Shown here one piece after another: positions 2,906 through 20,061 of a DNA stretch of 20,061 nt. The stretch lies in IMG/VR virus record IMGVR_UViG_3300033177_000036. One strand, 5' to 3'. The stretch is from a virus. Numbering within the stretch: position 1 is the stretch's first letter; each line of letters opens with the position of its first letter. The translations under genes were made by a program, and so were the position numbers. The notes under the pieces are model-generated. The model ran no database searches and was not told the origin of the DNA. It saw only the letters and a list, made by a program, of their open reading frames with translations.

Positions 2906-3904
2906 CTAACTGTAAGTCTCGTCTTTCCAGTGGTAGAATGCCCCGGTGAATCTCCAGGTCATCTTAGATTTGATGACCTCGCCGACCGAAGCGTTCACGG
3001 GCGCGCCTTCGAGATAGCCGTCTGCTTCTATCCGATGCCGCCCGGTGTCGGTGTTCACGAAAAAGACAGCGATCATGTTCTGTCGCAGGTCTCCAGAGTG
3101 ACCTGGAGTGACCCAATAATCAGAGACGTCGCCGGACCCGCCCACCAGGCCAGGCAGGAACTCTTTGTGACCTCCGGAGCAGAACGTCGTGACCTCTTTC
3201 ATGTCTACTTCGGGGCTGACGCTGAAATCGTAGGCATGGCAAACAGCCTCCATGATATGCTTCGTCCCCGAGGCCCTGAATAAGTCGGTTGGGTCTTGTG
3301 CTACTGAAAACGTGATCAGGCCGCGATAATAGTCCACCGTGAACCCGGTCGTGATCTCGCCCCACGATCCACCGCCTAGGGGGTTCTTCTCGATCGTGAG
3401 CGTCTCGCCAGAATCCCAGTAGCGATCAGCGATAGCGGCTGCCTGGTAGTGCTTGTGGTCTCCGAGATCGACGAGCTCAACGTTCGTGAAGCTCTCGGTC
3501 GTGGCGGTGGACCCTCCAGATAGAGACGTCGAGCCCATCGCAGTCACGACGCCGGAGCCGTCGTTCCCGGTAGCCAGAGCGGCAGAGACCCATTTGGCTG
3601 CCAATTCGTCGGCATTGATCGCGTCCATGACCTGCTGAGCGGTAGACGTGATGGCACCACCAGATCCGGTAGCAAGATAGACGGTTATGGTCTGCGTCGA
3701 TTCAGCCACAGATATTGAGAGCTCTGCGTTATTGGCGCTCGGATCTCTGTATATGATCTCTATGGCATTGCCCGCCGTCCCCGGAGGGACCGCCGTAAAC
3801 GTGAGGTCGTTGTTGTCCCCGACTAGATCCGTCGTGAGTGTGGCCCTCTTCTGAGTCTCCATGAAGAAACTCGATGCGTAACCCGCAAGAGCGGCGGTAG
3901 TCAT
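2906..3904 (-). CDS. Tail tube protein paralog 2, with two inserted domains
   Basis: The C-terminal part (HAYDFSVSPEVDMKEVTTFCSGGHKEFLPGLVGGSG...VNASVGEVIKSKMTWRFTGA) aligns by eye with the 146-aa tube protein upstream. About 200 aa are inserted after the first strand. Confidence 0.8.
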   Translation of the reverse strand: MTTAALAGYASSFFMETQKRATLTTDLVGDNNDLTFTAVPPGTAGNAIEIIYRDPSANNAELSISVAESTQTITVYLATGSGGAITSTAQQVMDAINADELAAKWVSAALATGNDGSGVVTAMGSTSLSGGSTATTESFTNVELVDLGDHKHYQAAAIADRYWDSGETLTIEKNPLGGGSWGEITTGFTVDYYRGLITFSVAQDPTDLFRASGTKHIMEAVCHAYDFSVSPEVDMKEVTTFCSGGHKEFLPGLVGGSGDVSDYWVTPGHSGDLRQNMIAVFFVNTDTGRHRIEADGYLEGAPVNASVGEVIKSKMTWRFTGAFYHWKDETYS

Positions 3905-5869: not shown

Positions 5870-6159
5870 CCCTCCCAGAAGGTAGTTTGACCGCCGAGGC
5901 CCGGAACGTGGCTTATCTTCTGGATCTCTTTCGTGACCCCGCCGAAGGTTATTTTGTCGCCCTTCTTCAGCTCCACGTCGGCGAAGATGTGCGCTTCCGA
6001 GGTCCAGGTCTCGGTCTCCGATAGCCGGACGAGTTTCGCCGCCTCCTCGAATCTGCAAGAGATCGTCACAGGATCGGCGTAGGTCTTCCCCCAGGGGCCA
6101 TCTCCTGTGAGGCTCTCCAGAGTTGCCGTCTGTTTCAGGAGGGGCGTCATCAGGCTCAT
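5860..6159 (-). CDS. Head-closure (stopper) protein
   Basis: GDGPWGKTYADPVTISCRFEE...LKKGDKITFGG pattern; ATG 6159 overlaps the upstream TGA (ATGA). Confidence 0.8.
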   Translation of the reverse strand: MSLMTPLLKQTATLESLTGDGPWGKTYADPVTISCRFEEAAKLVRLSETETWTSEAHIFADVELKKGDKITFGGVTKEIQKISHVPGLGGQTTFWEGWL

Positions 6160-6656
6160 ATTACGCACACATCCCGCGCCAGGTAGCGCTCCAGAAGCCG
6201 CCACGCCCGCTTTGAGTAGAACCCCTCTCTCGAATCTGATGTAGAAGAGCCCCGGAACTCGTACTGAAGCCCCGTCCCGGAGATCCGGACGGACTTCACA
6301 CCGTGCTCTTGAAGGTCGTCCACCTCGTCGTAATCGCTGGATGCGGTCGCGGCGAGGATCGCCACCGCTTCGAGACAGATCGCGTCTTTGATCGCCTGGG
6401 GGATCACGTAGGCGTCGGCGTCCTCGTCGTAGTCGTAGGCCCCGAGCTGATCCACCCGAGGGAAAAGTTCCTCCTGGCCTTCCTCTACCGTCTCGTACCT
6501 CTGGCCTACAAAGGCCAGGCTTTCGAGCTTCTCGACGGCCCGGTCTAAGAGGATCTGTCTGTCGCCGTCACTGGCTGCGTTCCAGGCAGTCAACTCGGAT
6601 GACAGGCAGAGGGCCACAAGGCGCGTCTTAGCGTCGGCGAGGAGGATGTAGGCCAT
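6156..6656 (-). CDS. Head-tail adaptor (DnaT-like family)
   Basis: MAYILLADA...W...LLDRA..LE...FVGQR...QEELFPR...IPQAIKDA pattern; position downstream of the MCP. Confidence 0.8.
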   Translation of the reverse strand: MAYILLADAKTRLVALCLSSELTAWNAASDGDRQILLDRAVEKLESLAFVGQRYETVEEGQEELFPRVDQLGAYDYDEDADAYVIPQAIKDAICLEAVAILAATASSDYDEVDDLQEHGVKSVRISGTGLQYEFRGSSTSDSREGFYSKRAWRLLERYLARDVCVI

Positions 6657-6664
6657 GTGCTCCC

Positions 6665-7096
6665 CTAGACTGGGAACTTAAACGCCTCAATCGTCCCGTC
6701 GGTGGAGTTCGTGTTCACCAGGAGATAGCCGGTCTCATTGACGAACCGGGCGCTCTCAAAGGGACCGATCCAAGTCTCAGAGGTGCCGTTGGCAATGGTG
6801 ACAGTCAGATTCCCCAAAGAGGATCGGAAGGCAGGGGGATCGTCGCCAGCAAGTACCGTAATCGTCACGTTGCCGGATTCGACCACCCTCAATAGGGTTC
6901 CGGGATAGAGGGCAATGGTGTGGTTGTTGGTGGAATTGAGAGTGACAGGCGTGGCCATTGATGCCGGTTCGCCGTTCTCAACCAGGGTGGTGCAATTGAT
7001 CACAGTCCTGGCACCGGAAGCCATAGGCAGGGCGAGGAGACCGACCAGAAGAGCGGCCCCCAGGATTGCCATGAATAGTTTCTTCATCATCATCAC
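6665..7096 (-). CDS. Signal-peptide-bearing, sequon-rich beta protein in the capsid decoration-gene position
   Basis: MKK plus hydrophobic LFMAILGAALLVGLLAL plus PMASG|A cleavage-like site. Eight NxT sequons among 11 Asn. SD GAGGTG suggests a start at ATG 7090 or 7087. Confidence 0.8.
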   Translation of the reverse strand: MMMMKKLFMAILGAALLVGLLALPMASGARTVINCTTLVENGEPASMATPVTLNSTNNHTIALYPGTLLRVVESGNVTITVLAGDDPPAFRSSLGNLTVTIANGTSETWIGPFESARFVNETGYLLVNTNSTDGTIEAFKFPV

Positions 7097-7098
7097 CT

Positions 7099-7971
7099 CT
7101 AAGAAGTCGTGGCCGTCAGGACCGCCAAAGCCGTAGGTCTTACGACCTTTGCGCCGTAGACGTGCAGGCCCTTCACGGCGTCGGCGAACCTCTTCTCCAT
7201 CCGGTACGGCTCGACCTTCACAATCTGTTCAGCGAAGGACCAGGCCATCGGATGGCCGGCGATCACCTTGTACTTGGAGCCAGCGACGACGGGGCAGTTG
7301 GGCGATTCGTAGACGTCGAATCCCAGGACCCGCCCTATCTGGCCAGATCTGAGAGTGTCGGCGCTTCCGGCGACGTTGGCTTTCGTGAACCTCTCATCCT
7401 TCAGCATCACTGCTAGGATCTCAGGACCGGCTATCACGAATCGACCGCCTGTCGGGATCTTGGCTTTGTTGAGCTTGACTCTGAGGTCTACCAGCTCGTC
7501 GAAGATGTTGTACTCTCCTTCCCCAGGAGTGCCAGCGACCACAGTATGTGGCGTGGTGTTGTTGCCGATAGCGTTGGAAGCGCTGGCGTCAGTATAGAGA
7601 TCGGCAATGAACAAGTCGGCAGCATCCCGGAGGTAATACGAGGCGTCAGTCATTGCGGCGGCCATGACCTTCGGCTTCTGCTGGGCCTGGTCGAGGTCGT
7701 CCACCTGGAAGTTGAAGTACTTCGCCTGGTCGATCTTAAGCTCTGCCTGGGCGTCAGTGAGGGCTTCGGGGTCGTCGATGTCGGTATCTCTGGTGTACGT
7801 CCCGACCGAGATGGGGCCGATTGCGTTGATCTTCACCGTGTCGCCGAATGCCCGGATCTCGCCCTGATAGTCCCTATTGATGATAGCCCCCTGGCCGAAG
7901 ATGTGGACCTTCTGGAGGTTGACTAGCAACTGTTGACTCCATACTTCTGGAATGAAGTTTGCAAGAGACAT
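7099..7971 (-). CDS. Major capsid protein (HK97 fold, P22-coat-like family)
   Basis: MSLANFIPEVWS...NRDYQGEI...GDTVKIN...LKIDQAKYFNFQVDDLD...RFADAVKGLHVYGAKVVRP, a characteristic family signature. Confidence 0.93.
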   Translation of the reverse strand: MSLANFIPEVWSQQLLVNLQKVHIFGQGAIINRDYQGEIRAFGDTVKINAIGPISVGTYTRDTDIDDPEALTDAQAELKIDQAKYFNFQVDDLDQAQQKPKVMAAAMTDASYYLRDAADLFIADLYTDASASNAIGNNTTPHTVVAGTPGEGEYNIFDELVDLRVKLNKAKIPTGGRFVIAGPEILAVMLKDERFTKANVAGSADTLRSGQIGRVLGFDVYESPNCPVVAGSKYKVIAGHPMAWSFAEQIVKVEPYRMEKRFADAVKGLHVYGAKVVRPTALAVLTATTS

Positions 7972-8561
7972 TACTTGATTTCTCCTTTCGCCATTGCTTC
8001 ATGGATGGCGCTTTCGTTCTTCGAAAATTCCTCGGGTGTCATATCTTTGATCTGCTGACGAGTGAAACTGGTCTTCGGAGGGTTGCCACTGCCCCTGCCC
8101 CCGTCTCCGACGTTGGGAGGAGGATAAGAGGTCTTCATAAGGGGCATATGAGTCTCCAAGAACTTTACCGGGTCGTCGCCGGGTCGGAAGTTGACAGCCA
8201 CGTATTCAGCCGCGCCTTTGCCGAGCTGAGCCTCGGAGACCTTGGAATTGATCTCTTTGATCCCAGCGTCGTACTTCTCGCGCTTTTCGGCTGCGGCCTT
8301 CATGTCGGCGAGCTCTTTGGCGACGGCTTCGGCTTTGGCGTTGGCCTTTTCCACCTCCGTTTTTCCGGCGGATTCGAGCTCTTCCACCTTAGTTTTCAGC
8401 GTGTCCCTTTCGATGGTCAGTTTGGAGTTCGCAGTCTCAAGCTCTTTGTTTTTGGCTTGCAACGCCTCAAAATCGGCTTTGGGGACGTGGTTTTTGAGCC
8501 GTTCCCCTACGATCTTATTGACGTCTTCCTGTGTGAATTTCTTCTCGTCGTTCTCAGACAT
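7971..8561 (-). CDS. Capsid scaffolding protein
   Basis: KKFTQEDVNKIVGERL start, long coiled coil, Gly/Pro linker, C-terminal ITRQQIKDMTPEEF-like helix; TAATG coupling to the MCP. Confidence 0.88.
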   Translation of the reverse strand: MSENDEKKFTQEDVNKIVGERLKNHVPKADFEALQAKNKELETANSKLTIERDTLKTKVEELESAGKTEVEKANAKAEAVAKELADMKAAAEKREKYDAGIKEINSKVSEAQLGKGAAEYVAVNFRPGDDPVKFLETHMPLMKTSYPPPNVGDGGRGSGNPPKTSFTRQQIKDMTPEEFSKNESAIHEAMAKGEIK

Positions 8562-8581
8562 GGGAAAGCACCCGCTAAGTC

Positions 8582-8648
8582 TCGCCGATATCGGACGGCG
8601 GCGACGTCTCCAGCAGCAGGCAGCGCCCGTTTAGCGTCCGGGGAGACG
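8582..8648 (-). promoter_or_regulatory. Two adjacent stem-loops in the 5' leader of the scaffold/structural operon
   Basis: Perfect complementary pairs at 8642-8648/8605-8611 (CGTCTCC/GGAGACG) and 8599-8604/8582-8587 (TCGCCG/CGGCGA). Confidence 0.45.
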
Positions 8649-8700
8649 AGAATAGATTGCCTGAGCCGAAGATCCAATAGTGGGTTATTTAGAGGCGATT

Positions 8701-8720
8701 GTATATAAACTTATCCTTAC
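8701..8720 (-). promoter_or_regulatory. Archaeal BRE-TATA promoter of the structural operon
   Basis: Minus strand reads GTAAGGATAA-GTTTATATAC, an AT-rich island about 140 nt upstream of the scaffold ATG. Confidence 0.65.
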
Positions 8721-8804
8721 GTTTCTATCACCTCAGGGCGAAGAAGGCGTCAGCTTTCGGCATTTCGCCCCCAGGCGGCGAGGAGGAGAGGGAGTCTCAT
8801 CGCC

Positions 8805-9695
8805 TCAGCCCTCCACCAGTTCACTTTCGACGTCAACCGCGCCCCGGAACTCCGACGAGTCATAGCAACCCGACAAGTCCGAGGGGAACGCCTCTCTCAT
8901 CGCTTGGACGAGGGGGACCTTTCGGATCATCGTCGCTTTGTGCGTCCTCCAGGGGCCGTCTTTCCCGCTGTCGTAGTCCTTCAATGCCACCTCCGCCCTG
9001 ACGGGATGATCTCTATCCTTCCGGAACACCTCCGCCCACCCGCCGAGAAGCTCCTCGTCCTTCCGGACGAATGAGCCTTCCCGATAGATCAGAGAGCCCT
9101 CGCCGTCGTCTACGATGACTCCAGCCTTGAATCCTTTGTACTGAGGGTGGAGTTCCGCCTTCCGCATGAAAGCCTCTTTTCCGACTACCATCTGAGCCTT
9201 TGCCCCGTACTTGATCAGGTATGCCTCGTTTGTGAACGGGTTAAGGTTCCTCGCCTGGCATAGCTTCAGGAACATGAAAGCCTCCTGATCGGTGGCGGCG
9301 GGACAGATATAGTCCTTGATGTCATCGAGCGATAGCTCCGCCACCTGGATATCCCGCATCGGGGCGGACCGGACGACGATCGCTTTGGGGGGCGGTGTCG
9401 CCGATGAACCCGACATGCGATACTCTTTTTTGGGCGGCGGGGAGGGCGTCTCCAAAGCTTTCCTCAGGGTCTTGATCCAGGGCCGGTCGAGCTTCGTCAT
9501 TATCTCGCCCGTCTCGGCGTCTACATAGACGTGACCCTTCCCCGGTTCGTTGATGCTGATGCAGTCGGGGAGCCCGGAGACGTTCAGTGATCCGGTCCAG
9601 TCTTCGGGTTTGGGTTTTACGTTATCCGTCGCTAGTTCGGAGCCGTACTCTTTGTTTGCGGCCTCAATAAATGCGTCTACTTTTTCTGCTATCAT
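8805..9695 (-). CDS. bet: Bet/RecT-family single-strand annealing protein with an N-terminal extension
   Basis: CPAATDQEAFMFLKLCQARNLNPFTNEAYLIKYG...VGKEAFMRKAE...LLGGWAEVFRKDR...ATMIRKVPLVQAMREAFP, a Bet-family signature. Confidence 0.9.
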   Translation of the reverse strand: MIAEKVDAFIEAANKEYGSELATDNVKPKPEDWTGSLNVSGLPDCISINEPGKGHVYVDAETGEIMTKLDRPWIKTLRKALETPSPPPKKEYRMSGSSATPPPKAIVVRSAPMRDIQVAELSLDDIKDYICPAATDQEAFMFLKLCQARNLNPFTNEAYLIKYGAKAQMVVGKEAFMRKAELHPQYKGFKAGVIVDDGEGSLIYREGSFVRKDEELLGGWAEVFRKDRDHPVRAEVALKDYDSGKDGPWRTHKATMIRKVPLVQAMREAFPSDLSGCYDSSEFRGAVDVESELVEG

Positions 9696-10280: not shown

Positions 10281-10315
10281 ATATAAGCTTTACGGTACAT
10301 GGAAAGCTTAATATA
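10281..10315. promoter_or_regulatory. Back-to-back divergent BRE-TATA promoters
   Basis: ATATAAGCTTT (10281-10291) and AAAGCTTAATATA (10303-10315) form a near inverted repeat, each 23-25 nt upstream of a start codon. Confidence 0.65.
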
Positions 10316-11592: not shown

Positions 11593-11925
11593 GGGCTCCC
11601 CCCATGCCTCCCCCCATGCATGACACCACGAATGCCAATGTTTGTGTATGGTGGGGGCGACCCACAAAGTAGCCATCGGGCTCCATAGATCACACCACCC
11701 CCACCGATCCTTTGAAATCGTCTTCCGCTCATGCCAGTTCGGGCAATTTTCACATCGCTGTCCTTGAATGTGGTGAGAAATCCGCCACGCGATATGATCT
11801 AGCCAATCCTCTTCTAGTATGTGATAGACTGAATACAACCCAACGAAATCGAACAATTTATATAAATTATCCGGTATAAATGGGTAGTCACGCCACCACC
11901 GTTTCCCATCCCATTTATCCATCAT
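11572..11925 (-). CDS. Trp-rich protein with a CxxC...C...C putative metal site
   Basis: 117 aa with 14 Trp; CENCPNW...WGWC...WCHAW; coupled start. Confidence 0.65.
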   Translation of the reverse strand: MMDKWDGKRWWRDYPFIPDNLYKLFDFVGLYSVYHILEEDWLDHIAWRISHHIQGQRCENCPNWHERKTISKDRWGWCDLWSPMATLWVAPTIHKHWHSWCHAWGEAWGEPSSVEGL

Positions 11926-16343: not shown

Positions 16344-16937
16344 ATGGCAAAGGTAGATGAGGAGAAGGTGAAATCCTTCCTTTCGCAGTGGATTCAAGGC
16401 AGGATATTTTGGGAGAAAAAGAACAACTTCGGCTATCCGGTCTTTCAATGTGATACGTCGGAAAGGCCCGATATGCTGATCATAAACAACGGGTATCCCA
16501 TAGCGGTTGAAGTTAAACATGCTAAAAGCACCGGAAACGTCTTGGATGGCGTCGCCCAGACCCTTCGATATGCGAGGGACGGGATCAAGTTCTATGTGGA
16601 TCACCGCGAAATCCAGCCCGCCTGTTATGTACTGGCTACTCAAAATAGTATCCGGGGATGCCTATTCGACTTCGAGAAGAAGAAGGTTCCCGCATCGGAT
16701 GGGCGCGACTATGCCGCTAGGATGGGCGAGATTCCAAACACCGAATACAGGTACACCTTCCAGGCCCTCCGCTCCCTCTGGCGATTCGCCGAGTTTGAAA
16801 GGGATGTTCATGGCTGGAACTGGAACGTCGGGGTAGGGTTCTTATTATCTACGGCTTTGAATAATCCCGAGGGGCCGGTCTTTTCTCCGTTGATTCAGGC
16901 CAAAATCGATAAGCAGCAGTTTATTAAGGTGATCTGA
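16344..16937 (+). CDS. PD-(D/E)XK nuclease, restriction-endonuclease-like
   Basis: RPDMLI...IAVEVK...DGVAQTLRY (PD, ExK and QxxxY motifs); lower GC. Confidence 0.75.
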   Translation: MAKVDEEKVKSFLSQWIQGRIFWEKKNNFGYPVFQCDTSERPDMLIINNGYPIAVEVKHAKSTGNVLDGVAQTLRYARDGIKFYVDHREIQPACYVLATQNSIRGCLFDFEKKKVPASDGRDYAARMGEIPNTEYRYTFQALRSLWRFAEFERDVHGWNWNVGVGFLLSTALNNPEGPVFSPLIQAKIDKQQFIKVI

Positions 16938-19900
16938 TGGACACCGCAACGGAGATCACTGAGGGCCATTATCAGCGACCGGAAGTTAAAGAAGTTATTC
17001 TCAAGCTATGCAGTTATGCCGGGGGGCTCAGGGGGCTCAACGGCGACGAGGGCTGGTATTCGAAGGGTCCGGGAGGATCAGTCAAGCTTCGTGGCCCCGG
17101 TGACTACGACGACACCACGGCGAGGGCCCGATCGCTCTACATGACCGCCGACGTATTCGACCCGAAGGTATTCGATCTGTCGGCTCAGTGGATCGAAGGG
17201 CGAGGAGGCGAGGGGCGGCCAGAGTTCCCCCTGGGAACGAGGGGAGACCTCATATCTTACAGCCTCTTCGCCGATATCGACGCGGTGAAAGATCCCAGGG
17301 GCCCGGATGGGTCGAAGCTATTTCATGAAGGTCGTATCGAGGCCTTGGAAGCGGCGGCGTCTTTTATGGTGCAATACCTGAAAGACCGAGGCATCTCAGA
17401 GTCTGTGGGGGTTTTATTCTCAGGGCAGGGGATTTACGTCTGGCTTCATCCGGCCCTGTCAGATGTATCGGAGAACAGGGCCCTGGCGGGATTCGACCGT
17501 GAAAAGCAGGACCATGATTTTAAGGTCTGGCTCGAAGCATTCAACGCACTCCTCTATGATATTGAGAAGGCGTTTTGTGAGGAGTACCCGGAACACGTCG
17601 GGCGGGTGAAATTCGATAAGCTCAACAATCAGAAACGAAAAATCAAGTGCCTGCTGTCGATTCATAAGACCATGCCTTTTGCGGTCGTCCCTCTTGATCG
17701 GGATGATGTCAAGATTGATCTGGAACGGGCCCGGCTCACTCTCGATGGTGGTCTGCCTTCTGAGACGATTGCTGAAGCCGAAGCGTGGCTGGATGGATGG
17801 AAGGCAGGGGAAGGCGAAAGGAAAGCGCTTATATCTCTTCTAAAGCCCTATGCCACCAAAGCCGAAAGGGACATCTCCCGGAAGGCCAATACATCGGGAG
17901 AGATCAGCCGGGCATCGGAGCCGATACCTATCTTGGATTGGTGTCCATTCTATCAAGCACTGGGGAAGTTCCCGGGAGGTACGGGGGCTCACCGAGTATG
18001 TGGTGCGCTAGCGGCCTGGCTCTACCAAGCTGGCTGGGAAGAGGGAGATGCCTTCGACTTATGGTATAACGTTGCGGCTCGATGTGATGTGGAGACGAGG
18101 ATCTTTTACACGTCTTATGGGGTCATCAATAGCCCGTCATGTAGGACGATCCAGAAGACGAGCGCGGGATATCCGTCTCTCGGCTTCGGGGGGTTGAACT
18201 TGTGCAATCCAAATGAGAAATGCGAGGGGGCGGTCTGGCCGGGCCAGTACGGGACGCAGCCGAAAGACGAACTAAGCGATTTTTGCGTTGAAGTGTCGAA
18301 GAAGGACGGGGGAACGTATTTCAAATTTTCGCCGACGAAGGCGACCGATGCCTTAATCGGGAAGTATTTCGTGCTGGCGGCGTCGAAGATCGATACGGAG
18401 ATCTATTGGTACGATGGACAGATCTACAGGCCTGATGGAGAGAGGAAGATTGACCTGAAGATCGTCTCTGTCGTCGAGGATCGGGCCAACGGGCGGGACG
18501 TGCAAGAGGTGACGAGGCGGATCAGGAACCGGCTTTTAGAGTCGCCGGTCGAATTTGATCCCGATCCGTTCCTTTTAGGCCTGCGAAATGGGGTCGCCGA
18601 TCTGAGGACCGGCGAAGTCCGGGCTTACAGGCCCGACGACCTGATAACGGATATGATCGAAGTCGATTTCGACCCGGCGGCCCGGTGCCCTCAATTCTTA
18701 GGGTTCCTGGAGACGAGCGCCCCTCACATCTCCGACCGTTTCACCCTCATCGATTGGTTCGTCGCCACGGCGATCAAGCTCCCTCTGCCTTACGTCCTTT
18801 TTCTCCTCGGACTGGGGCGGAACGGGAAGGGGCTTTATGAGAACGTTATCAAGAGGTTTTTCGGTGGGGGGGCGTTTCGAGATATGGCCCTGGCCGAGAT
18901 AACCCGGAACAACTTCGCGGCGGCATCGTTCTACAAAAAGAGGGGATGGATCGCGTCGGAGCAATCGGGGAAGAGGAAGAGCACCATCGGGACCGACTTC
19001 ATGAAGCTGACATCCGGGGACGGGACGATCGACGGCGACAGGAAAAACAAGAGCCGGATTCAATTCAGGCCCTACTTCCAGACCATCGTCGATACAAACG
19101 CCATGCCGAAGATCGAGGACACCTCGATAGGCTGGATGGAGCGGTTCGTGAAGGTAGACCTGCCTTACGTCTATGTCGCCGAACCCAACCCCGAAAATCC
19201 CCTTGAACGGAAAAAGGACCCCCTGCTATTAAGCAAACTGACTACCGACGAGGAGCTGTCGGGAATCCTCAACCTGATCCTGTGGAGGGCCCCGGCGGTC
19301 TCCAAAACGATGACGATCCACAAGCGCCCCGCCGCCGTCATGTTTGCGGAGTACACCAGGCAAAGCGCCTCCGTCTTATCGTTCCTGGAGGCCTTCTGTG
19401 AATATGACCCCGAAATCGACCAGGAGAAGCTTATCAACTGGGCAGGCCGCCACCCGACTTATAAAATATACGAATATTATAAAAAGTGGTGTTCGGCTAT
19501 GGTGGGCGAGGTTGTAGACGAGGCCTACTTCGGCCGAAGCGTTAAGCGATTTTGTGGGGGGCGAGACGGTTCCAGGACCAAAGACTCTGATGGGAGAAAT
19601 TGCACGTATTATAGGGGCCTGTTGTTCTATGAGGATAAGGCTAAGGAAGCTATAGATCTTCTACTACCTGAGATCTCAGGTAGTAGTATCTATTCTCAGG
19701 TAGACCGTAGGTATAATACTATAGACAGTAGCCAGGAGATAACGGTTTCTCAGGTATCTCAGGTAAAAGCATGGGATTATGCCCTTAAGAGATTCGGGCC
19801 ATCTCCCTATAGGAGAGAATATGGAAAAAATGGCCTTTTGCCTGTTGTACCTGAGAAACCGTTAACGGGAGACGTTGAAGAAGTTGATTCTACCCGAGAA

Positions 19901-20061
19901 ATACATACCTTTGTCATACATCTACCTGAGAAACTTGACGAAATGGATCAAGTTCTCTCTGAAATGGAGCGCAAAGGAGAAGCTTATCACGTGGAGGTTT
20001 TCGAAATGGAGTTTGATCTGAGAGAGGGAGAAGGAGCCCCGAAGCTGACGGCGAGAGGATG
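16937..20061 (+). CDS. Primase-helicase: AEP (PriS-like), PriL-type 4-Cys domain, D5_N, SF3 helicase and winged helix; 3'-truncated
   Basis: Manual translation from ATG 16937 (TGATG coupling) is open for >1041 codons. Motifs: LFADIDA (17273-17281), SGQGIYVWLH (17420), Cys codons at 17942/18140/18203/18221, LGLRNGVADLRTG, Walker A GLGRNGKG (18809-18832), WIASE, IVDTN. Confidence 0.92.
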   Translation, partial: MDTATEITEGHYQRPEVKEVILKLCSYAGGLRGLNGDEGWYSKGPGGSVKLRGPGDYDDTTARARSLYMTADVFDPKVFDLSAQWIEGRGGEGRPEFPLGTRGDLISYSLFADIDAVKDPRGPDGSKLFHEGRIEALEAAASFMVQYLKDRGISESVGVLFSGQGIYVWLHPALSDVSENRALAGFDREKQDHDFKVWLEAFNALLYDIEKAFCEEYPEHVGRVKFDKLNNQKRKIKCLLSIHKTMPFAVVPLDRDDVKIDLERARLTLDGGLPSETIAEAEAWLDGWKAGEGERKALISLLKPYATKAERDISRKANTSGEISRASEPIPILDWCPFYQALGKFPGGTGAHRVCGALAAWLYQAGWEEGDAFDLWYNVAARCDVETRIFYTSYGVINSPSCRTIQKTSAGYPSLGFGGLNLCNPNEKCEGAVWPGQYGTQPKDELSDFCVEVSKKDGGTYFKFSPTKATDALIGKYFVLAASKIDTEIYWYDGQIYRPDGERKIDLKIVSVVEDRANGRDVQEVTRRIRNRLLESPVEFDPDPFLLGLRNGVADLRTGEVRAYRPDDLITDMIEVDFDPAARCPQFLGFLETSAPHISDRFTLIDWFVATAIKLPLPYVLFLLGLGRNGKGLYENVIKRFFGGGAFRDMALAEITRNNFAAASFYKKRGWIASEQSGKRKSTIGTDFMKLTSGDGTIDGDRKNKSRIQFRPYFQTIVDTNAMPKIEDTSIGWMERFVKVDLPYVYVAEPNPENPLERKKDPLLLSKLTTDEELSGILNLILWRAPAVSKTMTIHKRPAAVMFAEYTRQSASVLSFLEAFCEYDPEIDQEKLINWAGRHPTYKIYEYYKKWCSAMVGEVVDEAYFGRSVKRFCGGRDGSRTKDSDGRNCTYYRGLLFYEDKAKEAIDLLLPEISGSSIYSQVDRRYNTIDSSQEITVSQVSQVKAWDYALKRFGPSPYRREYGKNGLLPVVPEKPLTGDVEEVDSTREIHTFVIHLPEKLDEMDQVLSEMERKGEAYHVEVFEMEFDLREGEGAPKLTARG
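19661..19931. repeat. TCTCAGGTA iteron-like repeats, a 26-bp palindrome and a 17-bp inverted repeat (candidate origin)
   Basis: 9-mer on the plus strand at 19674, 19694, 19748 and 19757; reverse orientation at 19665, 19848 and 19923, with a variant at 19891. Confidence 0.8.

Follow-up and report, generated by a model that had tools for sequence, protein, structure and literature searches.

A leader-bearing, sequon-rich variant of a capsid-gene-linked protein family in a virus of a probable Methanothrix-type host

The heads of tailed viruses are assembled in the cytoplasm, and the classical proteins that decorate or cement capsids (lambda gpD, T4 Soc and Hoc, phage L Dec, TW1 gp56) are cytoplasmic and without a leader. 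In mycobacteriophages (Che8 and others), phage glycosyltransferases reportedly O-glycosylate capsid and tail proteins, also in the cytoplasm, and for all tailed-virus glycan coats that we know of it is there that viral enzymes attach the glycans. Viruses of Methanothrix encode secreted sheath-like (SH-like) proteins of 159-288 aa (ISME J 2024, PMC11576556), which are small, leader-bearing, beta-rich and thought to act extracellularly late in infection. The haloarchaeal tailed virus HRTV-DL1 has structural proteins that carry sequons and stain as glycoproteins; no leader was reported for them, and deletion of aglB was without effect on the virus (PMC10384203). The SH-like proteins, the HRTV-DL1 structural proteins and the glycosylation of mycobacteriophage virions are the nearest published themes to the locus described here. 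We found no paper on a head-module protein of archaeal tailed viruses that is both leader-bearing and rich in sequons.

The locus lies in a window of 20,061 nt, IMG/VR virus record IMGVR_UViG_3300033177_000036. Contigs related to the window derive from anaerobic bioreactor samples. The protein of interest, hereafter the target, is encoded on the minus strand at 6665-7096 and combines a Sec-type leader with eight sequons. Like the SH-like proteins, it is virus-encoded, small, leader-bearing and beta-rich, but it originates from a phage head-module family, whereas they originate from host sheath genes. An hhalign comparison of its family with the sheath-like protein vir525_00064 gave a probability of 0.3%, the family motif GPFESARF was not found in the supplementary sequences of PMC11576556, and the target is modelled as a two-sheet sandwich, with no sheath structure among the matches listed. 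With the decoration proteins, the target's family shares the nature of its gene, a small accessory one beside the major capsid protein (MCP) gene. As a further likeness, some of its members carry an extra surface-loop domain. Its capsid role is a candidate one, and no fold match to known decoration proteins was found, the best PDB matches being generic beta-sandwiches (Z ≤7.1). The proposed target virion would resemble that of the mycobacteriophages in being a tailed-virus particle with a glycan coat. However, no glycosyltransferase is encoded here, and the proposed route is host Sec followed by AglB, i.e. N-linked and outside the membrane. Finally, the comparison with HRTV-DL1 is with an archaeal tailed virus that has sequon-carrying structural proteins, for which, unlike the target, no leader was reported.

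Read from GTG 7096, the target ORF encodes 143 aa and ends with a stop codon at 6665-6667. As the earlier note on this DNA had stated, it is flanked by an MCP gene and a head-tail adaptor gene, both on the minus strand. The MCP gene (7099-7971; PF25209, E 7e-12; phrog_267, E 4e-75) ends 2 nt before it, and the adaptor gene (Ad1 type, 6156-6656; phrog_477, E 1e-8; PF20557) begins 8 nt downstream. The first gene of this head operon (7971-8561, minus strand) encodes a probable scaffolding protein, judging from weak coiled-coil or scaffold matches and from its position. On contigs identical to the window, gene callers placed the start of the target at ATG 7090 (141 aa) or ATG 7087 (140 aa), and either seems a likelier start than GTG 7096. 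These codons are only 2-3 codons inside the GTG, so that the residue numbers used here, which are those of the earlier note, would shift by at most 2-3. A Shine-Dalgarno sequence, GAGGTGAT (7092-7099, minus strand), shares its end with the stop codon of the MCP gene (7099-7101). Such an overlap suggests that translation of the target is coupled to that of the MCP gene, and the motif fixes the start as one that includes the leader. The same or a similar Shine-Dalgarno sequence lies upstream of the leader-including ATG of L081, L068, L017 and L089, and one is present 5′ of this ATG in 5 of 7 lineages. The reading frame and its leader are kept in homologues with 63-100% identity. The earlier note had considered that an internal start might remove the leader. 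An ATG able to do so does exist (Met25, 7022-7024, minus strand) and would yield a leaderless product beginning MASGART, but it has no Shine-Dalgarno sequence upstream, and there is no Met at this position in P0013, P0014, P0015 and P0111, nor in most sister lineages.

The leader (residues 1-28; 7013-7096, minus strand) was read from the sequence. It is made of a basic n-region (MKK), a hydrophobic core of 17 residues, a Pro at about −6 and then A-S-G-A, which is what is expected of a Sec signal processed by signal peptidase I (basic n-region, h-region of 7-20 residues, small uncharged residues at −3 and −1). As a sequence pattern, the Sec-type signal described in the earlier note is therefore confirmed, and the target is the only one of the window's ORFs to have a signal-like N-terminus. 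Three other types of signal were considered and rejected: a class III (type IV pilin-like) archaeal signal, since L-F comes right after K-K and neither G nor A stands at −1; a Tat signal, for want of twin arginines; and a lipoprotein signal, for want of a lipobox Cys. In an AlphaFold2 model computed from an alignment of 146 sequences (mean pLDDT 88.9), residues 2-19 form a helix detached from the domain, and the linker at 21-24 has low confidence. In the sister lineages the leaders have canonical ends, e.g. ASA/T or AGA/T. The leader region is open and hydrophobic in every lineage examined and contains no stop or frameshift; its dN/dS is 0.23-0.87, compared to 0.12-0.21 for the mature part. 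A faster amino-acid change than in the mature part is the usual behaviour of signal peptides. The earlier note had supposed that cleavage would regenerate an N-terminus of the MART type found in leaderless relatives. The junction is indeed placed there, as leaderless homologues begin exactly at this point. The arrangement is that of a Sec-type leader of 26-28 residues joined to the ancestral N-terminus of a leaderless family.

This family is phrog_24894. The target matches its profile with an hmmscan E value of 2.3e-21, residues 30-142 aligning to profile positions 3-120 of 123, and matches the family HMM with an E value of 1e-47. A profile search of 1.84 billion cluster representatives retrieved 705 relatives, which are uncharacterised beta-sandwich proteins of about 115-135 aa. 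The MCP gene is the constant neighbour of the family: a PF25209-type MCP gene was directly upstream in 57 of the 72 family loci fetched, and within 1.5 kb in 11 more. Those relatives that come from genomes with a name are without exception bacterial (Microbacterium, Subtercola, a Clostridia MAG, Acidimicrobiales, Pyrinomonadaceae), the family being carried by prophages of Actinomycetota, Acidobacteriota, Clostridia and others. Two motifs, G-D-x-P-P-A-F-R and G-P-F-E-S-A-R-F, characterise it, and both are present in the target; the invariant columns are G84, P87, P88, R91, G111, P112, F113, E114, R117 and F118. The bulk of the family and the target therefore have in common homology over the whole mature domain, the PPAFR and GPFESARF motifs, a predicted beta-sandwich and the gene slot. 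They differ in that almost all members begin MA(R/N)T (MART.. or MANAT..), with no leader and about 1.2 sequons, compared to a Sec-type leader and 8 sequons in the target. Both the likeness to small beta proteins encoded after P22-coat-like MCPs, which the earlier note had pointed out, and the derivation from a normally leaderless family linked to the capsid gene are upheld by these matches. We conclude that the target is by its sequence a variant of phrog_24894, given a leader unlike the usual architecture of the family.

Structure comparisons point to no particular function. The best structural matches in Foldseek and VIA-align searches are generic beta-sandwiches, jelly rolls or binding modules (Z ≤7.1), and those closest to the target include carbohydrate- and collagen-binding modules (Z 6.0-6.3). 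Matches in BFVD (TM 0.63-0.68) are all uncharacterised phage proteins, and a PDB sequence search with the target gave nothing below E 0.4. Searching isolated phages by tblastn with the target and its Microbacterium homologue gave no match, and neither did a blastn search of phages with an 8-kb part of the window; phrog_24894 is essentially absent from the cultured phages of the collection searched. Two family members, P0090 and P0110, have a domain inserted in a loop that resembles the outer domain of tail-sheath proteins (Z 7.1, rmsd 3.1 and 95 residues aligned with 9gb1; Z 5.7 with 9ezm). This insert suggests that the family may be positioned on the surface of the virion.

The mature beta-sandwich domain of the target (residues 29-143; 6668-7012, minus strand) covers the phrog_24894 match and was modelled with a pLDDT of about 96. 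It contains eight sequons, all NxT, which take up 8 of the 11 Asn of the target: N34, N54, N58, N76, N96, N103, N120 and N130, with codons at 6997-6995, 6937-6935, 6925-6923, 6871-6869, 6811-6809, 6790-6788, 6739-6737 and 6709-6707 of the minus strand, respectively. Serine and threonine make up 22.6% of the mature part. Shuffles that preserve its composition yielded 2.3 sequons on average (p = 1e-4 to 3.5e-4 for 8 or more), values close to the 23% and 2.5 of the earlier note. A compositional artefact was rejected on this ground, p being still about 1e-4 in shuffles that keep the composition. Sequon enrichment was found in 0 of the 23 other window ORFs tested, and the two neighbours that the earlier note had cited for their lack of bias have the counts it gave (2 sequons in the MCP, 1 in the 332-aa tube paralog). 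All eight sequon Asn are in loops or at strand edges in the AlphaFold2 model. At −2 the eight sequons have V, T, T, S, L, I, F and N, respectively, and thus neither D nor E, so that the sequons are not of the Campylobacter PglB type (D/E-x-N-x-S/T).

We then compared leader and sequons across the family. Among the best 150 of the 705 representatives, a leader is present in 4 only, with 8, 10, 4 and 6 sequons, compared to a mean of 1.18 and a maximum of 5 in the other 146 (Mann-Whitney, p = 5e-7, and 5e-5 with a single count per deep lineage). IMG/VR was also scanned a second time, with patterns taken from divergent leader-bearing forms, which yielded 26 distinct leader-bearing proteins with 4-7 sequons (mean 5.0) and 22 leaderless proteins with a mean of 1.5. 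In total, 31 distinct leader-bearing proteins were found, with 4-10 sequons. The earlier note had proposed to compare bacterial and archaeal homologues for the two traits, and the outcome agrees with its expectation: leader and sequon density occur together, and homologues from bacterial genomes are without both. Virus L089 offers the comparison within one genome. Behind its MCP gene come first a leaderless copy of 120 aa with 1 sequon and next a leader-bearing one of 150 aa with 6; on the tree, the leaderless copy falls outside the leader-bearing group. No second, leaderless copy of the family was seen in the available sequence of the window, L044 and L080.

In the maximum-likelihood tree, the nine leader-bearing rows are all on one side of a branch, whose support (SH-aLRT 79-84) comes from about 129 alignment columns. 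A single gain of the leader is the best reading of this topology, with moderate support. Attraction by shared sequon columns was considered as the source of the grouping and rejected, since the group persists (SH-aLRT 76) after removal of 37 sequon columns. The deep leader-bearing lineages are only 23-41% identical to each other, and yet sequons at the positions of N34, N96, N103, N120 and N130 of the window are common to 6-7 of the 9. The middle residue of these sequons is not fixed (C, T, S, A; or E, Q, S), as expected under selection on the sequon itself. Leader-bearing members thus appear to make up one large and old group of the family, in which sequons are enriched about four fold at conserved positions.

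Taken with the leader, these sequons make export of the target and its N-glycosylation by AglB a well supported prediction. The scheme that we propose would run as follows. The gene would be expressed late, its start probably being coupled by translation to the MCP gene. Host Sec would insert the precursor with its N-terminus inside, and signal peptidase would cut near A-S-G-A, so that the mature N-terminus would resemble that of leaderless homologues. Host AglB, acting at the outer membrane face, would N-glycosylate the domain at up to eight Asn, and the glycoprotein would collect between membrane and sheath. As heads are assembled in the cytoplasm, the exported protein cannot join them there; it would bind them only after a breach of the cell membrane, and the virion would thereby obtain a coat of host-made glycans. 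As a whole, i.e. a leader-bearing derivative of a head family, exported by Sec, glycosylated by AglB and binding heads after the breach, in a Methanothrix-type host, we give this explanation slightly better than an even chance. Its parts are not equally firm. The target keeps the conserved C-terminal motifs of the family, and therefore probably the ancestral partner as well; that this partner may be the capsid surface is a weaker inference. Coating of the heads after lysis is likewise favoured over action on the cell envelope with less firmness, on the basis of the retained C-terminal motifs, the association with one type of capsid gene and the loop domain of P0090 and P0110. If true, the released particle would have a host-type glycan coat that could not be made in the cytoplasm. 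Whatever its function, this head-module gene appears to have been remade for export, with sites for extracellular glycosylation by the host, and has been kept in this form through deep divergence in Methanothrix-linked viruses. Extending this to tailed viruses of sheathed methanogens in general, where a Sec-exported, AglB-glycosylated head-accessory protein would bind finished heads within the sheath after the breach, as an extracellular step of virion formation, is something we put forward tentatively and regard as doubtful.

Other explanations have to be weighed against the coating of heads. Export and glycosylation might be real while the target has nothing to do with the head, and acts on the host envelope instead, either for egress through the sheath or S-layer or for masking of a receptor. 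Superinfection exclusion and a decoy function, both suggested in the earlier note, may be counted as candidate roles only. We consider an envelope role unlikely, although several observations fit it: secreted beta-rich proteins, with a proposed role in egress, occur in 75% of Methanothrix viruses (PMC11576556); the target is a late gene and the only leader-bearing ORF in 20 kb; carbohydrate- and collagen-binding modules are near its fold; and L089 retains a leaderless copy beside the exported one, as expected if the latter took a new job. However, the comparison with the published viral sheath-like protein revealed no sequence relation, and with 140-143 aa the target is below the size range of these proteins. 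Moreover, the exported group has lost nothing of the nearly invariant motifs at the C-terminus, which points to an unchanged partner, and in the window, L044 and L080 no second copy was seen that could perform the ancestral job. Both outcomes would be of interest, the one being a virion part that matures outside the cell, and the other a structural protein with a new extracellular job, which would have arisen as a phage lineage passed from bacterial to archaeal hosts. A variant of the export scheme, which we hold to be improbable, is that the leader is not cleaved and serves as a signal anchor, the target being then a type II membrane glycoprotein that might, for example, mark the surface of the infected cell. 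The core of 17-20 residues, modelled as a single helix, would be compatible with an anchor, and some close relatives are a poor fit at −3 and −1 (A-M-G-G, or G-A-V before RT). Against it, most lineages have the ASA/T or AGA/T ends, with Pro or Gly before, and in all lineages the junction falls right on the ancestral N-terminus. A target that stays in the cytoplasm and serves the head, by starting at Met25 or through another role of its N-terminus such as assembly close to the membrane, with the sequons left unused, would suit both the cytoplasmic assembly of heads and the presence of no other copy in the window, and MASGART resembles the usual start of the family. This we judge very improbable: the strong Shine-Dalgarno sequence is found at the leader-including ATG and not at Met25, Met25 itself is absent from P0013, P0014, P0015, P0111 and other lineages, and there would be no explanation for a four-fold rise of sequons, at conserved positions, that is seen in leader-bearing members only and not in the leaderless copy of L089.

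The least probable of the alternatives, in our opinion, is that the host is a bacterium of the anaerobic digester, with a leader that exports the target to a bacterial envelope and an NxT pattern of a cause other than AglB. It draws on the capsid gene. The window MCP shares 55-61% identity with prophage MCPs from bacteria (Peptococcaceae, Caloramator, Mesotoga; 55-58% for the nearest named ones) and 57% with the MCPs of Aeribacillus phage AP45 and phage D6E. The replication module points elsewhere, and it is mainly from this module that we assign the virus probably to Methanothrix or a relative. The N-terminal 460 aa of the primase-helicase (16937-20059, plus strand), a host marker outside the target, are 64% identical to a protein on a 100-kb contig of Candidatus Methanocrinis natronophilus, 54-58% identical to Methanothrix MAG proteins, of which one is encoded in an integrase-bearing element, and 66% identical, over part of their length, to a protein of Methanosaeta sp. 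PtaB.Bin087. In all, 4 of the 5 named relatives (54-67%), including one from an isolate genome, belong to Methanothrix, Methanosaeta or Methanocrinis; the fifth is labelled Syntrophales, on a 2.3-kb MAG contig, and counts for the bacterial reading. Identity to the primase of vir525, a virus labelled Methanothrix (PMC11576556), is 37%. A candidate archaeal TATA box, TTTATATA (8702-8709, minus strand), lies about 140 nt upstream of the scaffold-MCP-target operon; this motif has three matches at two sites in the window, all between called genes, where 0.23 would be expected, and sigma-70-like sites are not enriched in the window. In addition, two leader-bearing sister contigs, IMGVR_UViG_3300037043_000179 and 3300032156_000154, are independently listed as Methanothrix-associated in a published table (PMC11576556). 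The primase relatives, the TTTATATA boxes and these two contigs make the archaeal host of the earlier note likely.

Methanothrix is a major methane producer in digesters and wetlands, and we know of no general bacterial system for which plain N-x-T suffices and −2 need not be acidic. On the archaeal side, a gene cluster for N-glycosylation that includes several copies of aglB is reported from Methanothrix harundinacea (PMC9128505), and Methanosaeta concilii is reported to have a sheath made of an N-linked glycoprotein (PMC2952790). A leader and sequons on a head gene of bacterial type also make a simple marker in the sequence for assigning such viruses to archaeal hosts. In the virus that encodes P0111, terminase and primase resemble those of Firmicutes phages, and the portal, terminase and primase of L044, L080 and L089 have matches to Firmicutes phages only, at 26-47% identity, which leaves the reading of the host neutral for these three.

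The genome in the window looks like a cross-domain mosaic. Its MCP (7099-7971) was found to be 55-61% identical to MCPs from bacterial prophages and Aeribacillus/D6E phages, while the N-terminus of its primase (16937-20059) shared 54-67% identity with proteins from Methanothrix and Methanocrinis. This double affinity of the sequences suggests that a bacterial-phage head module moved into a methanogen virus fairly recently. A homologue of the primase was also encoded on L084 (1-18512), a contig of a Methanothrix sp. MAG, in an element that also has genes for an integrase and a ParE/YoeB-type toxin, together with a complete type I restriction-modification system. The element is likely to be an integrated plasmid or virus relative.

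In the region 7971-9695, no portal or terminase gene was present upstream of the probable scaffold gene (7971-8561) of the head operon, the place being occupied by a RecT/Bet-type recombinase gene (8805-9695). The same gene order, with the recombinase upstream of the scaffold gene, was found in three sister contigs (L072, L075 and L076). Therefore, the packaging genes must be located elsewhere in the genome. In the sister virus L089 (8740-16154), the MCP gene is followed by genes for two paralogs of the target protein, first a leaderless one of 120 aa and then a leader-bearing one of 150 aa. Next come genes for proteins of 73 aa and 1819 aa, the latter with no Pfam hit on record.

In the target gene itself (6665-7096, minus strand), an in-frame ATG (Met25, 7022-7024, minus strand) lies immediately upstream of the predicted cleavage site. 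Initiation there would yield a leaderless product whose beginning resembles the ancestral protein. No ribosome-binding site was seen for this ATG, and at most a minor cytoplasmic isoform might be made from it.

Some bacterial-type members of the family, phrog_24894, have an extra segment: in P0090, P0110, P0115 and P0148 (as well as L033, L034 and L057), an insert of about 100 aa, present once or twice, separates the LGDL motif from the GPFESARF motif. In its fold, the insert is similar to the outer domain found in tail-sheath proteins (9gb1, Z 7.1). A plain copy of 130 aa lies in tandem with the insert-bearing members. Weak matches to a sheath beta-sandwich domain (PF17481, E 0.04; phrog_279, E 1e-4) were also detected in the 332-aa tube-protein paralog (2906-3904, minus strand). 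The matching region may represent an outer domain of the kind that the insert forms, as if a single surface module were reused across different virion parts.

Candidate TATA boxes were found as well. Exact copies of the archaeal TATA-box consensus, TTTATATA, lie between called genes at 8702-8709 (minus strand) and 11857-11864 (plus strand), and a TTAATATA-like box is present at about 10306-10314 (plus strand), 24 nt upstream of ATG 10338. The short distances separating boxes from ATG 11880 and ATG 10338 suggest leaderless transcripts for the genes that begin at these two codons.
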